The notes under the pieces are model-generated. The model did no database searches and was not told where the DNA came from. It worked only from the letters and a program-made list of their open reading frames with translations. 64,000 nucleotides of DNA from a virus: the IMG/VR virus record IMGVR_UViG_3300021399_000006, positions 78,128 to 142,127 of that record; one strand, written 5' to 3'. Below are positions 1 through 64,000 of this stretch, piece after piece; positions within the stretch are counted from its first letter, which is position 1, and each line of letters starts with the position of its first letter. The translations under genes and the position numbers were made by a program.

Positions 1-216
1 AAAAACAATAGCTTCAGAAATAGGATTATTTAAATATCTTTCTATGATTTCTTTTATTTCTATTTCTACTTTTGGCGCGGAAGCTAGGTCTGAATTTTGA
101 CAGACCTGCTTCCCGCATTCTTTATCACACTTAAATGTACAATAAGGCATCATTATTGTCATACAGGGTTTTTTATAATTAACAAAATCTTCTTCTATAA
201 TATCAATTATTTTCAT
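1..216 (-). CDS. Cys-rich protein, possibly an NrdG-like activase (partial; continues beyond window start)
   Basis: Minus-strand ATG at 214-216 overlaps the nrdD stop. Translation reads MKIIDIIEEDFVNYKKPCMTIMMPYCTFKCDKECGKQVC... with a Cys cluster. Its position directly downstream of nrdD is where nrdG normally sits, but the Cys spacing is not the canonical CxxxCxxC. Confidence 0.25.
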   Translation of the reverse strand, partial: MKIIDIIEEDFVNYKKPCMTIMMPYCTFKCDKECGKQVCQNSDLASAPKVEIEIKEIIERYLNNPISEAIVF

Positions 217-2165
217 AATGTCTCCGCAGTATTATTTATCGGTTCCCATCTCCGCATTTTATATTCTTTTACTCTTGCTTTAGACCATGAATTAACTGGT
301 GTATAAAAACCTACAACACGAGTATATGATGTTTCAACTGGCTTTCCGCAAACTGGACATGTTGTACCATAAAAAGCATGATTTTCTTCACAAGCCTGAA
401 TTATTGTATTAAAAGCAAAATATGTAACTCCCGCGTCTGCAATATATTTAACCATTTTATATGCCTTTTCATAAGAATCAAAAGGCGCATCAATGTTTGC
501 ATGAAGGATAGAACCACCGTTACAAAAACTATCAAATAAAGCTTGTACTCTAACTCTCTCTTGTAATGTTGTTTTAATTCCTAATGGAATAAATTGATTT
601 CCATAAAGAGGTAAATCATAAATATTTGCATTGGGATAAAAGAACATATCTTTTTTCATAAGTTTTGCGGCAGCTGTTTCACCAGGAATTTGTTCTGTAT
701 TAATCATATAATCACAATTATAATAACGAATAAATTCATCTGCCGTTTGTCTCATTACTTTAAAGATTTTTTCTCCAAATCTACTTGCTTCTTCTGTATA
801 AAAATTATTTCCTAATTTATCTTTTTGAACATAGCCAAAGCGTTTCATTGTTTCATATATACCGATAAAACCAATAGTATTATATAAATGTTCAAAATCA
901 ACTAATTTATATGAAAAATTAGGAAGTAATTTTTTATCTACATCACGTTTAATAATATTACGAATTACATCAAGAGCCTTTAAATCTAAAAGAACTCGTT
1001 TTTCTAATTCTTCAAGGTACTCTTGCTCTGAATTTGTATCAAGTGCTAAACGCGCTAGATTAATAGTAGAAACTTTTACACTACCAACTTTAAGTGCAGT
1101 ACCTCCAATTGAATTAAAATAGCCTAAATCTCTTATATCACTTTTTAATCTGCAACAATTACTTAGACTATTTACACTATTGTCTACAAAAATATTACTA
1201 TCTGACCATATCATATTATGACGGATAGCCCATTCCGCAAAATCAGGGTCAATAAAATCTCCATTTTGGTAAAGTAATGAAATGGTATTTACAGGAAATG
1301 TAAACATATTTTCACTTCTCGTTTTCGCCATCTATTCCATATACCACTTTTGAAATTCAATAATTTCATCTTCATAATCAATCATAAAAGTCCCGTCTGG
1401 AAATTCTGCTCCACCGAATAGTGCTTCAAAATAAGGCTTATCAAATACTGATGTATTAGTGAAGGCGGATTGCTGTCCATCACGAACATAAGGCTGATTC
1501 ACTGCATAAATAAACCGTTGAAAGTTTTGACGAGCATATCCTTCTGCAGACTCTGATGTAGTTATACCAAGGTAGTCCGCCTATTTATCTTTATTCCAAA
1601 AATAAAACATATATGGAATTAAGTTAGGTAAACCTACTGCTCCGCTACTTCGATTACTTGCAAAACCAATAAACTCTTTTACAAAGTCAACAAAAGTAGT
1701 AAGATGTTTAGCAGGCTTATAATTAAACGGATCTCCTATAAAATAAAGACCCTTTTCCGCCAAATCTTTTAAATCGTAAGCAAAACAATAATGTTTAAAT
1801 GTCGATGTATCTGAATCATGTAAATATAATTCTCCAATCCATTCCGCACGTAACCATTCATTAGCTGTTTTAAACCCATATTTCTTTTGAATTTCATAAT
1901 AAATTTTATTAAAAGCTAAAAGTTTTCTATGCGGTTTAGGCATTTCAGAAAGTAATGTTACCATATCTTTTCGTCTCACATTACTATTTCCATCTATTGA
2001 TACATTTGCTACTGTTTTTTCATCAATAAAATTATCAATAAAATCAGTATAACTTAATTGATCGTCATCGAATCCATTAATTCGTGCAATCTATGTTCCA
2101 AACTATCCTTGCAGTTTATTGTATTGTGTCGTAAAATTTTTTCCAAGTCTAATATTAATTTGCAT
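213..2165 (-). CDS. nrdD: Anaerobic ribonucleoside-triphosphate reductase NrdD (class III RNR), about 651 codons with 4 in-frame TAG
   Basis: Three ORF-track pieces lie in one frame (213..1331, 1581..1979, and an N-terminal extension to ATG 2163-2165). They are separated only by TAG codons at 1332-1334 and 1581-1583, plus two near 2100. The C-terminus has a Zn-ribbon CPVCG and a glycyl-radical motif TRVVGFY. The middle has FTNTSVFDKPYFEALFGG. An SD-like GGAG lies upstream. Confidence 0.75.
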
Positions 2166-2383
2166 TAGTTATAGTTCTCCTTTAACCATTTAACAGCTTG
2201 TCCAAAATCTAATATAGTATCATCTATTTGGAGGGCGGGAACCGATTGAATCCCCAACTATAGCATTTTATCTATGTTTTCATTTACAGTATACTATATA
2301 TTAGTTTTATCTAATTTAGTTTTTAACACTTTACATTTTGGACAATTTGTTGAATAAAATATAATCATCATTTTTTCCTCCAT
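2165..2383 (-). CDS. nrdH: NrdH/glutaredoxin-like redoxin (72 aa, 2 in-frame TAG)
   Basis: Translation reads MEEKMMIIFYSTNCPKCKVLKTKLDKTNI(Q)YTVNENIDKML(Q)LGIQSVPALQIDDTILDFGQAVKWLKENYN. It has a CPKC active site and a VP motif of the thioredoxin fold. Its stop overlaps the nrdD start (TAATG). Confidence 0.55.
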
Positions 2384-2469
2384 TTTATATTTTAAAATCA
2401 TAAAGCATGAATTAATCAATTTTGTTCCTATCGAATAATATGAAGTAAATCAGTTATAATAGGTTGAAT

Positions 2470-2985
2470 CTAATTTGTTGAATTATCAATTACTTTATAG
2501 GAAAAAGGAAGATTTAAAAAATCTTTTTTATCTGATAAAAATCTTCGACATATTTCATTACAATTAGGATTACCTTCTCTATTTAATTGTCTTAATAATC
2601 TAATTTTATCAGGACACCAAATAAAAATAGGAGTACAATCAATTCTATTATTTTCTAATAGCTGTTTGATTGAATTAGGAGAAAAAACACCTACATTAAT
2701 TTTATCTTCTTTTAAAACATCAATAGATGTACCATACCACCAATTATTAAAGCAAGAAAATTCTATCCACTTTTTTAAATTTTCTCCACTCATAAACTCA
2801 TTTGCTGTATTAATAAAATGATAATGTATTCCATCTGCCTAATAAGGTCTTGCAGGACGAGTAGTAGAAGATACAATTTTATTTAAATTCATTTTTGCGT
2901 AAGGTGTCTGAAAAAGGTTGGAAAGGATATAATCCTTTCCAGACCCCGCAGAACCGAATAATGCTATAATTTTATATTTATTCAT
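2470..2985 (-). pseudogene. Guanylate/dNMP kinase-like gene split by a +1 frameshift at a TAA, with one in-frame TAG
   Basis: The N-terminal P-loop piece MNKYKIIALFGSAGSGKDYILSNLFSDTLRKNEFK ends at TAA (about 2878). The rest continues in the +1 frame as ...KIVSSTTRPARPY(TAG)ADGIHYHF...FIEFSCFNNWWYGTS...IFIWCPDKIRLLRQLNREG, which carries the GMP-kinase motifs TTRxPRxG(E)xDG, YGT and RL..R. This is either a programmed +1 shift or a pseudogene/indel. Confidence 0.4.
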
Positions 2986-3190
2986 TATCTTCTTCTCCTT
3001 TTAATAAATAGAGTAATATATCTTTGGCATTATAATTAAAAATATGATAAGGATAAAAACTAAAAACATTATTAAAAATTTTACATTCATGTTTCCATTT
3101 ACATTTATCTTCTTCACATTTACCACCATTATAACATTCAATACACATAATTATAAGATTATAAGGACTCATTATTTTCCTCCATTCCAT
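2978..3190 (-). CDS. Small Cys-rich hypothetical protein
   Basis: 70-aa ORF with CIECYNGGKCEEDKCKWKHEC. Confidence 0.3.
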   Translation of the reverse strand: MEWRKIMSPYNLIIMCIECYNGGKCEEDKCKWKHECKIFNNVFSFYPYHIFNYNAKDILLYLLKGEEDNE

Positions 3191-62997: not shown

Positions 62998-63102
62998 GAG
63001 CATTTATCATATTTTTTGTTTGTTTACGGTTAGCTACTCCGCACCCTAAACAACTTTTTTGATAAATGTTAATACAATACATTAATTAACTTTTGTACTA
63101 AA

Positions 63103-63175
63103 CAGGAGCGGAAGGATTTGAACCTTCATAATCACGGTGTTGGAGACCGTTGCTGTACCATTGAGCCACGCCCCT
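63103..63175 (-). tRNA. tRNA-Trp(CCA)
   Basis: Acceptor AGGGGCG/CGCTCCT; anticodon stem ACGGT/ACCGT with loop CTCCAAC; T-arm GAAGG-TTCAAAT-CCTTC. Confidence 0.5.
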
Positions 63176-63181
63176 TAATTT

Positions 63182-63601
63182 TTAACGGTATCCATTAGAA
63201 AATCCAGGAAGATTACAATATTCACGAATGAATGCTTCAGGATTACGATAAAAAAGATTATCAAGCTGTTCAAGAGAAAGATTAGTTTCTTTTACAATAG
63301 GATAAATTTCATACTGAGTATTTTCTCTCATTGTTTCACCAAGCGCATAAGAATAGGCTTCATCCCACTCTTCTGACCCCCCTTCAATCTCATCTGATTC
63401 TTCATCAAAATCAAAATCAATTGCTTCTTCTGCCATAGCATTTAAATCATCCATAATACATGAATATTCCTGCATAACTTCATAAGAGGCTTCAATAGCT
63501 GCTTCTTCTGCGTCCTTTTCAGTACCTTCTACTACAAAATAAGATACCATTCCGTACATTCCGTCATACATCTGTTCACAAGCAATTACTGCATAAAGCA
63601 T
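63182..63601 (-). CDS. Highly acidic small protein (139 aa), candidate DNA mimic/anti-restriction
   Basis: DFDFDEESDEIEGGSEEWDE; high net negative charge. Confidence 0.3.
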   Translation of the reverse strand: MLYAVIACEQMYDGMYGMVSYFVVEGTEKDAEEAAIEASYEVMQEYSCIMDDLNAMAEEAIDFDFDEESDEIEGGSEEWDEAYSYALGETMRENTQYEIYPIVKETNLSLEQLDNLFYRNPEAFIREYCNLPGFSNGYR

Positions 63602-63779
63602 AATTTAATTCTTCCTTTCTTTTAAAAGTTAAATAGTTAGCAAAGGCTGTTCATCAAACTCCATTTAACTACTGCTCTTACCTTGTTTATTATATAGACT
63701 CTCAATGTCATATTCATATAATAAACTATAATTGTTTCGTAGCACCTTTTTTAATAATGCACATCACAAAATTGTATAC

Positions 63780-64000
63780 AGGCTAGATACATGTGACGTG
63801 CCATTATAGCCTGTTTTGCCTAGCGTTTCAGATGTGTTTTAGTCCTAATTTATTTAGGACAATCACGCATAGTCCCATTCACATCAGGGGCTTTAGGTCT
63901 CACTGTATGTAGCCGGATTCACCCTTCCTATCCCCCACTCATACAGGATGGTTGATCGTTTTTATACCGCATCTCCATTCTACGGTCAACTGAGCATTTG
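63780..64000. other. GC-enriched, hairpin-rich non-coding stretch (possible structured RNA), truncated by the window end
   Basis: No ORF. Several local stems (caggcta...tagcctg; gtcctaa-tttat-ttaggac). The composition is unlike the flanking AT-rich DNA. Confidence 0.2.

Follow-up and report, generated by a model that had tools for sequence, protein, structure and literature searches.

Phages whose genetic code differs from that of their hosts have been described for two stop codons. In crAss-like phages, translation of TAG as glutamine was validated by metaproteomics (PMC9523058), and for the gut phage Phass-1 (OQ749652) the same assignment was argued from TerL alignments and tRNAscan-SE (PMC10607447). 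Other gut phages read TGA as tryptophan (code 4). In these phages a suppressor tRNA captures the stop codon, a delay of late genes has been proposed, and some members carry genes for a release factor (RF) and a tryptophanyl-tRNA synthetase (TrpRS) (10.1101/2021.08.26.457843). According to Borges et al., phages differing from the code of their host show no reassignments other than TAG to Gln and TGA to Trp, a rule on which these authors rest their argument about synthetase susceptibility (10.1101/2021.08.26.457843). A literature search on phage recoding, of incomplete coverage, returned only these two reassignments and TGA to Gly in conjunction with code-25 hosts. Reassignment of stop codons to glutamate is known from two eukaryotic nuclear codes, NCBI tables 30 (Peritrich) and 31 (Blastocrithidia). 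The stretch analyzed here (IMG/VR virus record IMGVR_UViG_3300021399_000006, positions 78,128 to 142,127; 64,000 nucleotides, hereafter the window) belongs to a phage of approximately 125 kb with an SPbeta-like replication module which, judged from sequence comparisons, in all likelihood reads TAG as glutamate, with TAA and TGA remaining stops.

With the code 15 phages (crAss-like phages, Phass-1) it shares in-frame TAG codons in many conserved genes, TAA and TGA as stops, its own tRNA(CUA) within a large tRNA array, a mosaic use of TAG that avoids core replication genes, and the occurrence in gut metagenomes. What separates it from them is the inferred residue, which is Glu and not Gln. Phass-1 is a distant relative (30.5% identity in YorK, a homologous baseplate protein). 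As in code 4 phages, a suppressor tRNA of the phage takes over a stop codon, but codon and amino acid are different, and RF or TrpRS genes such as those of some code 4 phages were not seen in the 74 kb read here. Tables 30 and 31 likewise have TAG as glutamate. Those, however, are cellular codes of eukaryotes in which TAA is reassigned too, while here TAG alone is concerned, in a bacteriophage with a phage-borne tRNA and presumably a standard-code host. The replication module (yorF-yorG-yorH-yorI-yorJ-yorK...yorL, with a PolC-type polymerase) is syntenic with that of SPbeta, and the genome is in the range of SPbeta-like phages (SPbeta, Geobacillus E3, Staphylococcus SPbeta-like, Enterococcus EF1/VRE9), about 125-140 kb. 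On the other hand, protein identity to these phages, which use the standard code, is just 23-37%, and most tail and baseplate genes are unrelated to those of SPbeta. All protein matches in the phage collection remained below 60% identity (best 33.7%) and megablast of 20 kb against this collection gave no nucleotide match, values which would place the phage outside the genus and family of SPbeta.

The first-pass annotation, made from the letters of the window, had proposed that TAG is a sense codon throughout the genome, probably for glutamine, and that TAA and TGA are stops. The first and the last of these points were borne out by the coding density that it had suggested comparing. At a G+C content of 31.7%, open reading frames (ORFs) of at least 100 amino acids covered 0.64 of the window under table 11, 0.887 with TAG as sense and 0.678 with TGA as sense. 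TAA and TGA as sole stops gave 54 ORFs (38 ending with TAA, 16 with TGA) covering 0.92 of the window. Over their 19,550 codons, 131 TAG but no TAA or TGA occur in frame. The word "throughout" is too strong, as only 23 of the 54 ORFs contain TAG, among them the following.

213-2165, minus strand: NrdD, anaerobic ribonucleotide reductase; 650 codons, 4 TAG (amino acids 21, 25, 195, 278)
2165-2419, minus strand: thioredoxin/glutaredoxin-like protein (Pfam Thioredoxin_3); 84 codons, 2 TAG
2416-2985, minus strand: guanylate kinase (Pfam Guanylate_kin, 1e-18); 189 codons, 3 TAG
10307-12103, minus strand: RecJ-like/YorK single-stranded DNA exonuclease (Pfam DHH and RecJ_OB); 598 codons, 10 TAG
13937-15475, minus strand: DnaB-like helicase (YorI); 512 codons, 1 TAG (amino acid 24, in the DnaB N-terminal domain)
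16294-17280, minus strand: AAA_24/Sak4-like ATPase (YorG; Pfam AAA_24, 3.5e-34); 328 codons, 4 TAG
17368-18363, minus strand: YorF-like protein (Pfam label YorF taken from the gene tables of relatives); 1 TAG (amino acid 8)
19311-20267, minus strand: GIY-YIG nuclease (Pfam GIY-YIG) with N-terminal coiled coil; 318 codons, 21 TAG
27847-29334, minus strand: endolysin (GH25, CHAP and GW; Pfam); 495 codons, 8 TAG
36285-45839, plus strand: six consecutive tail/baseplate-like genes (PHROG tail families); 60 TAG, as follows
36285-39170, plus strand: tail/baseplate-like gene; 961 codons, 22 TAG
39172-41244, plus strand: tail/baseplate-like gene; 690 codons, 13 TAG
41216-41983, plus strand: tail/baseplate-like gene; 255 codons, 7 TAG
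42000-44588, plus strand: tail/baseplate-like gene; 862 codons, 11 TAG
44593-44895, plus strand: tail/baseplate-like gene; 100 codons, 3 TAG
45015-45839, plus strand: tail/baseplate-like gene; 274 codons, 4 TAG
56190-60127, plus strand: seven small genes with 1-7 TAG each (56190-56501, 56644-57141, 57383-58165, 58181-58636, 58602-59231, 59233-59547, 59618-60127)

The earlier tallies of TAG in nrdD, the Sak4-like gene, dnaB and the endolysin gene (4, 4, 1 and 8) were exact, whereas the RecJ-like gene holds 10 and not about 11. Likewise, the six TAG-only frames of the structural block with TAG at about 2% of codons were seen correctly, but the third and the last gene comprise 255 and 274 codons instead of 242 and 273. 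In this block, 60 of 3142 codons (1.9%) are TAG and none is TAA or TGA, while its two other frames contain 379 TAA and 208 TGA; the absence of in-frame TAA and TGA is not due to chance. The highest TAG density in the window (6.6%) was found in the GIY-YIG nuclease gene, in which 19 of the 21 codons lie in the N-terminal coiled coil.

Could TAG nevertheless be a true stop, with genes that have decayed into fragmented pseudogenes, were misassembled or are read through in a programmed manner at a few sites? Nothing beyond the standard-code expectation speaks for this explanation, which is refuted by the in-frame statistics given above and hardly deserves credence. Pfam domains span the TAG codons (NRDD, Guanylate_kin, DHH, RecJ_OB, DnaB, AAA_24, GIY-YIG, Glyco_hydro_25, CHAP), as in NrdD, whose NRDD domain (1.4e-89, amino acids 85-639) contains two of them. 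Where TAG is located close to the C-terminus, the protein tail downstream of it is kept in relatives, e.g., the conserved "IxITRTA" tail past the TAG at 58616-58618, which reads "LEVVRTA" in locus L077. The same TAG codons recur in independent assemblies (38 of 38 in L007, 22-23 in L008 and L010), and the contig to which the window belongs carries a tRNA(CUA) gene. Thus, TAG was confirmed as a sense codon and TAA and TGA as stops. TGA terminates genes at 44893-95 and 48356-58, both noted previously, and that it is not recoded is supported by the barely changed coverage with TGA as sense and by the tRNA-Trp with a CCA anticodon, which had also been noted and was located at 63103-63175.

To infer the amino acid, TAG codons were compared with relatives at the DNA level. 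A search with the RecJ-like protein revealed a large family whose best 120 matches are 65-91% identical, many of them on contigs of 120-150 kb. An alignment site was informative if one genome had TAG and the other a sense codon, and log-likelihoods were calculated from substitution profiles drawn from the same alignments. In the replication region, compared with L008, L010, L012 and L014 (65-90% identity in RecJ), the 138 TAG partners were mainly E (63), followed by Q (18), N (11), K (8) and D (7), with GAA far commoner than GAG among the E partners. The log-likelihoods were -325.6 for E, -426.2 for Q and -497 for N. For the structural region, L015-L018 were used (38-56% identity in the 961-amino acid protein). 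Here, 369 partners comprised E 109, D 43, Q 27, S 27 and N 27, the leading partner codons of block 36285-45839 in the four relatives being GAA, GAT and CAA in this order, and the log-likelihoods were -969.7 (E), -1149.7 (Q) and -1156.5 (D). E ranked first in each of the four relatives of either region. D equalled or exceeded Q opposite TAG in three of the four structural relatives; Asp as the runner-up fits a Glu position, not a Gln position. Pooled over both regions (507 informative sites), the values were -1337 for E and -1642 for Q.

Single genes gave the same picture. E was the partner in 11 of 15 informative comparisons of the guanylate kinase gene, in 26 of 45 of the RecJ-like gene (Q in four), in seven of nine of the AAA_24 gene and in four of four at amino acid 8 of the YorF-like protein. 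Due to its mixed partners in a low-complexity region (Q 11, E 11, N 7, K 6), the GIY-YIG nuclease reveals little on the amino acid. The earlier argument that Gln at TAG yields a natural-looking coiled coil in this protein does not discriminate between the residues. At invariant sites, defined by at least three relatives sharing one residue at an agreement of 90% or more, the window TAG codons stood opposite E in 17 cases and opposite A, G, C, Q and L in one case each; the invariant sites of the eight further loci of the Glu-type clade that were retrieved first (L008-L018) also showed mostly E. Of the 55 testable TAG sites of the window, 33 were variable. TAG thus lies mostly at variable positions, which are probably surface-exposed.

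More distant homologues were consistent with these data. In four cultured standard-code phages (SPbeta, Geobacillus E3, Staphylococcus SPbeta-like, Enterococcus VRE9_2), the 72 residues opposite window TAG codons included E 24, D 9, K 6, A 5 and Q 3. The TAG at 17140-17142 (amino acid 47 of the AAA_24 ATPase, motif "LAF-x-KGY") is matched by E in all three cultured phages possessing the gene (LAFEKGY, LPFEKGL, LGFEKGL), and amino acids 317, 346 and 472 of the RecJ-like protein pair mainly with E, less often with D, in cultured SPbeta-like phages. In the guanylate kinase, the TAG at 2839-2841 (amino acid 49) occupies the Glu position of the RPxE-xDG motif and faces E in each of the four PDB alignments listed, three guanylate kinases and the GK domain of Dlg1 (RPGEVHG, RPSEVDG, RDYEVDG). 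The first-pass annotation had recognized this conserved Glu position, but had counted it in favor of glutamine, although it is evidence for Glu. By contrast, three TAG positions in the GH25 domain of the endolysin are variable in PDB alignments (E/K/H, L/S/A and N/K) and uninformative.

The composition of the proteins agrees modestly with TAG being Glu. Genes without TAG encode 7.23% E and 3.10% Q, those using TAG 6.08% E plus 1.66% TAG, and 3.61% Q. Stored database homologues have just Q and E in quantity at the TAG columns. The Q residues were rejected as evidence for Gln, as the relatives' genes fail to match their stored proteins under table 11. Since the gene caller wrote Q for TAG (table 15), this evidence is circular, and for this reason the codon-level DNA comparison was used instead. 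For proteins P0001-P0240 and loci L008-L018, public databases store Q at every TAG due to table 15 gene calling.

The obvious competitor is the standard code 15, i.e., TAG read as Gln through a Gln-accepting suppressor as in crAss-like phages and Phass-1. It is the sole amber reassignment of phages in the literature found, Gln was the second-best hypothesis overall, and some conserved sites do pair TAG with Gln. Furthermore, the glutaminyl-tRNA synthetase (GlnRS) of E. coli accepts CUA anticodons. Nevertheless, code 15 is improbable for this phage. Glu codons outnumber Gln codons opposite TAG by approximately 3-4 to 1 in the eight relatives, in the structural region even D prevails over Q, and about 300 log-likelihood units separate E from Q. 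The preponderance of E at invariant sites, in the cultured phages and at the guanylate kinase TAG points in the same direction. Hence, the assignment to glutamine found no support in the comparison with eight relatives, four cultured phages and solved guanylate kinases, all of which indicate Glu.

That the method is able to detect Gln was demonstrated by controls. Applied to Phass-1 and three IMG/VR relatives, which were chosen since the published relatives BK046881 and BK025033 are missing from the phage collection, the same script found CAA 56, CAG 36 and GAA 16 opposite TAG, with log-likelihoods of -656 for Q and -968 for E. When ten sense codons (GAG, GAA, CAG, CAA, AAG, GAC, TAC, TTG, TGG, TCG) were masked in turn, the correct residue was recovered for all ten in both clades, while TAG was assigned to E in the window clade and to Q in the Phass clade. 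The invariant sites of four Phass-clade loci included 6-13 Q. TAG also pointed clearly to Gln in L083-L085, L044 and L098, IMG/VR loci of the family which bear the TROVE-like gene (see below) or share the baseplate; in L084, Q was found at 15 of 20 informative TAG sites. Related phages thus seem to use amber codes of the Glu type and of the Gln type side by side.

A CUA tRNA is absent from the 64-kb window, as had been stated before. However, the gene at 63182-63601, which lacks TAG, is also present on the ENA contig NODE_124 (124,767 bp), of which the window makes up positions 37,593-101,592; a stretch of this contig (L001) matches 10,819 bases of the window without any difference. On this contig a tRNA(CUA) is located 2.9 kb past the end of the window (L001:6625-6697, corresponding to 66905-66977 in continued window numbering), which matched the Rfam tRNA model with 56.4 bits. 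It belongs to an array of 30 tRNAs, whose edge lies within the window:

62768-63175, minus strand: tRNA-Arg(UCU), tRNA-Arg(ACG), an odd tRNA-like gene and tRNA-Trp(CCA)

The 20 kb read around the array contained no second CUA tRNA. Genes for release factors or aminoacyl-tRNA synthetases were not detected among the Pfam-scanned proteins of the window, about 74 kb of the approximately 125-kb genome having been read.

The tRNA(CUA) possesses C1-G72, G2.U71, C3-G70 and G73, a D stem of 3 bp, a D loop of 11 nucleotides (AAGCGGUCUAA), a short variable loop and the anticodon loop CUCUAAA. The tRNA-Glu(CUC) of the phage, which starts with CGUCCCU, also has C1-G72 and G2.U71 (boundaries taken from Rfam). 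No other tRNA of the array combines these two pairs, tRNA-Tyr having just C1-G72. By contrast, the tRNA-Gln(UUG) of the phage carries A1-U72, G2-C71, G3-C70 and G73, and the U1-A72/G2-C71/G3-C70 signature of tRNA-Gln is missing in tRNA(CUA), which also argues against code 15. The suppressors of Phass-1, L097 and L088/89 have U1-A72 or U1.U72, so that the top of their acceptor stem is Gln-like on sequence grounds; those of Phass-1 (U1-A72/G73) and L097 moreover have a D stem of 4 bp and a longer variable loop. For a wider comparison, 13 distinct CUA tRNAs were collected from 48 loci around homologues of the TROVE-like gene. Scores were obtained with anticodon-masked isotype profile hidden Markov models for which the tRNAs of the family itself served as training set (21 Glu, 29 Gln and others). 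Glu was the top isotype for all six CUA tRNAs of the Glu-type clade, i.e., for the window tRNA (Glu 29.0, Cys 25.4, Gln 22.9) and, with Glu/Gln scores of 44.3/17.8, 25.8/17.7, 35.2/24.3, 30.4/18.1 and 33.2/21.3, for those of L056, L061, L062, L064 and L086. Leave-one-out testing assigned 21 of 21 Glu and 26 of 29 Gln tRNAs correctly. The difference between Glu and Gln scores was at least +4.5 for true Glu tRNAs and at most +2.0 for true Gln tRNAs, the value of +6.1 for the window tRNA lying in the Glu range. Its body thus scores best as tRNA-Glu-like. Class of tRNA and inferred residue were concordant in L061, L064 and L086 (E) and in Phass-1 (Q). L056 was split on a small sample (E 7.2, Q 7.0), which leaves code 15 some room there. 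The earlier description of the window as "code-15-like" thus holds for the class of mechanism, but not for the code itself, as residue and tRNA appear to be of the Glu type.

ARAGORN labelled the suppressor "Pyl", a label which is derived from the anticodon alone. A reading of TAG as pyrrolysine or some further residue is extremely unlikely since the partners are Glu and Asp and not Lys-like, the tRNA forms an ordinary cloverleaf with a tRNA-Glu score, and no pyl genes were present among the proteins scanned. L071 and L093 (IMG/VR, identified via the TROVE-like gene) encode a CUA tRNA of 91 nucleotides whose long variable arm places it in class II, as for tRNAs for Ser, Leu or Tyr. It may represent a third type of amber reassignment within the family.

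Several observations weigh against the assignment of TAG to glutamate. The amino acid is deduced from homology, and due to the shared ancestry of the relatives the log-likelihood gaps overstate the independent evidence. A count-based composition test across orthologues, which asked whether counts even out when TAG is added to E or to Q, gave a weak signal in the expected direction but failed to return Q for the Phass control and was discarded. The classifier margin of the window tRNA is modest, and its raw identity to the 29 other tRNAs of the phage singles out no isotype, which is why anticodon-masked profiles with leave-one-out testing were used. The read sequence covers 74 of 125 kb, leaving space for RF, synthetase and amidotransferase genes elsewhere. 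Gln makes up 9% of the partners of TAG as compared to less than 4% of those of masked GAG. A "FILDYQY" site pairs TAG with Gln in five relatives, and amino acid 505 of the gene at 36285-39170 is Q in Enterococcus phage VRE9_2.

The two- to three-fold enrichment of Gln might reflect ambiguous decoding, a Glu-charged CUA tRNA being partly converted to Gln, or two suppressors acting side by side, with a mixture of Glu and Gln at TAG as the result. Homologue columns often contain E and Q only, though the database Q largely stems from table 15 translation of TAG, and at the mostly variable TAG sites either residue may be tolerable. On the other hand, a single CUA tRNA was found in the 20 kb around the array, invariant Glu sites in guanylate kinase and AAA_24 demand an efficient delivery of Glu, and the excess of Gln is also explained by CAG to TAG being the easiest route to a new TAG. 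Frequent CAG-to-TAG transitions would be compatible with the excess, and so would a limited insertion of Gln; a mixture of both residues at TAG is unlikely.

A further objection to TAG as Glu concerns the charging enzyme. In bacteria, the anticodon with its position 36 normally serves glutamyl-tRNA synthetase (GluRS) as an identity element. Because GluRS uses this position, charging of a CUA tRNA with Glu needs explaining. Moreover, the sole hint at a host is a 39% GH25 match to an Acetatifactor metagenome-assembled genome, obtained by a search of bacterial genomes with the endolysin. The endolysin is of the Gram-positive type, and a ROOL RNA is present. If TAG is Glu, the suppressor probably descended from tRNA-Glu(CUC) by one change at position 36 (CUC to CUA). 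It is conceivable that a host GluRS which is lax at position 36 charges tRNA(CUA) with Glu, and this enzyme could be the non-discriminating GluRS of hosts without GlnRS. Many Bacillota lack GlnRS and possess a non-discriminating GluRS that tolerates changes at position 36. GatCAB amidates only tRNAs with a U1-A72 pair and the D-loop of tRNA-Gln. Glu bound to tRNA(CUA) would stay unamidated because the U1-A72 pair needed by GatCAB is missing, and the charged tRNA would then have to beat release factor 1 at TAG. Under this scheme a Glu-bodied suppressor would stay Glu and a Gln-bodied one, like that of Phass-1, would become Gln, which may account for both reassignments within one phage family.

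Whether these data stand for a widespread clade of SPbeta-related gut phages of about 120-150 kb that use TAG as glutamate by means of a tRNA-Glu-derived amber suppressor, a code new for a virus or bacterium, with amber independently reassigned to different amino acids in the family, can at present be answered either way with equal right. The same even judgement applies to the corollary that in neighbouring clades (Phass-1, L083-L085) this stop was captured by Gln-type tRNAs. The clade is a common one, as shown by the many close RecJ-like matches on contigs of similar size. Amber recoding is treated in the field as TAG to Gln, and prodigal-gv, Pharokka-gv, the NCBI "code 15 clade" and protein databases write Q. 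If TAG is Glu, every database protein of the Glu-type clade translated with table 15 carries wrong residues, at 1-2% of the positions for many genes and at as much as 6.6% for one gene, and alignments built from such proteins falsely support Gln. The rule of Borges et al. would be broken and a new natural genetic code added to the prokaryotic virosphere, which raises the question of how a CUA tRNA gets glutamylated and escapes transamidation. A natural Glu-inserting amber suppressor is also of potential interest for genetic-code engineers.

The use of TAG is mosaic and not genome-wide, since 31 of the 54 ORFs are devoid of it. The larger TAG-free regions are:

3159-10180, minus strand: PolC-type DNA polymerase III alpha (YorL), UvrD/Dda-like helicase, gp30.3-like protein and small ORFs
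20318-27615, minus strand: NAD-dependent DNA ligase, A and B subunits of gyrase/topoisomerase IV
45854-55886, plus strand: four large tail-fibre-like genes (834, 570, 407 and 1287 codons)

The primase, an RNA-repair cassette, a vault-like protein and a TROVE-like protein are further encoded without TAG. As proposed for other recoded phages, TAG-containing genes would probably be expressed only after build-up of the suppressor. The tail/baseplate block and the endolysin gene are rich in TAG, while the genes for PolC, helicase, primase, ligase and gyrase are free of it. A clean early/late split is, however, contradicted by TAG in the genes for NrdD, guanylate kinase and the RecJ-like and Sak4-like proteins and by its absence from the four tail-fibre genes. 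The latter directly follow the TAG-rich structural genes, and the 1287-amino acid product showed weak Collagen and Metallophos matches in the gene table of relatives. One possibility is that this block is a host-range module recently acquired from standard-code phages.

The PolC-type polymerase gene (3159-7136, minus strand) is intact and encodes 1325 amino acids. In L008 (15247-20456) and L010 (13754-18966) it is split into parts of 865-866 and 369 amino acids by an inserted GIY-YIG endonuclease gene. The TAG-free gene at 33032-35533 (minus strand) encodes a protein of 833 amino acids with major-vault-protein shoulder and repeat domains and a Band_7/SPFH domain, which is 94-99.9% identical in L007, L015 and L016.

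Within the array, the tRNA-like gene at 62924-62999 (minus strand) has an anticodon loop of 8 nucleotides, for which ARAGORN gave a four-base anticodon ("gcat"). Five independent contigs carry it without a single difference, but its score stays below the Rfam gathering threshold for tRNA. It may be a decoy, a tRNA of the frameshift type or one resembling tRNA-Met or tRNA-Ile. Theta or HDV-like ribozymes were not found in the array at the Rfam gathering threshold, which yielded just tRNAs and a full-length ROOL RNA (RF03087, 276.7 bits; L001:3590-4184, approximately 69418-70012 in window numbering) about 2.4 kb from the suppressor tRNA. The TROVE-like gene (60243-61751, minus strand; DUF2828/DUF7788, TROVE/Ro-like, with a weak VWA match) adjoins the array, and the RNA-repair-like cassette (30175-32516, minus strand) consists of an RNA ligase, an AAA_33/KTI12-type kinase and a metallophosphoesterase. 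Together with the ROOL RNA, these genes suggest a large investment of the phage in the upkeep of RNA and tRNA.

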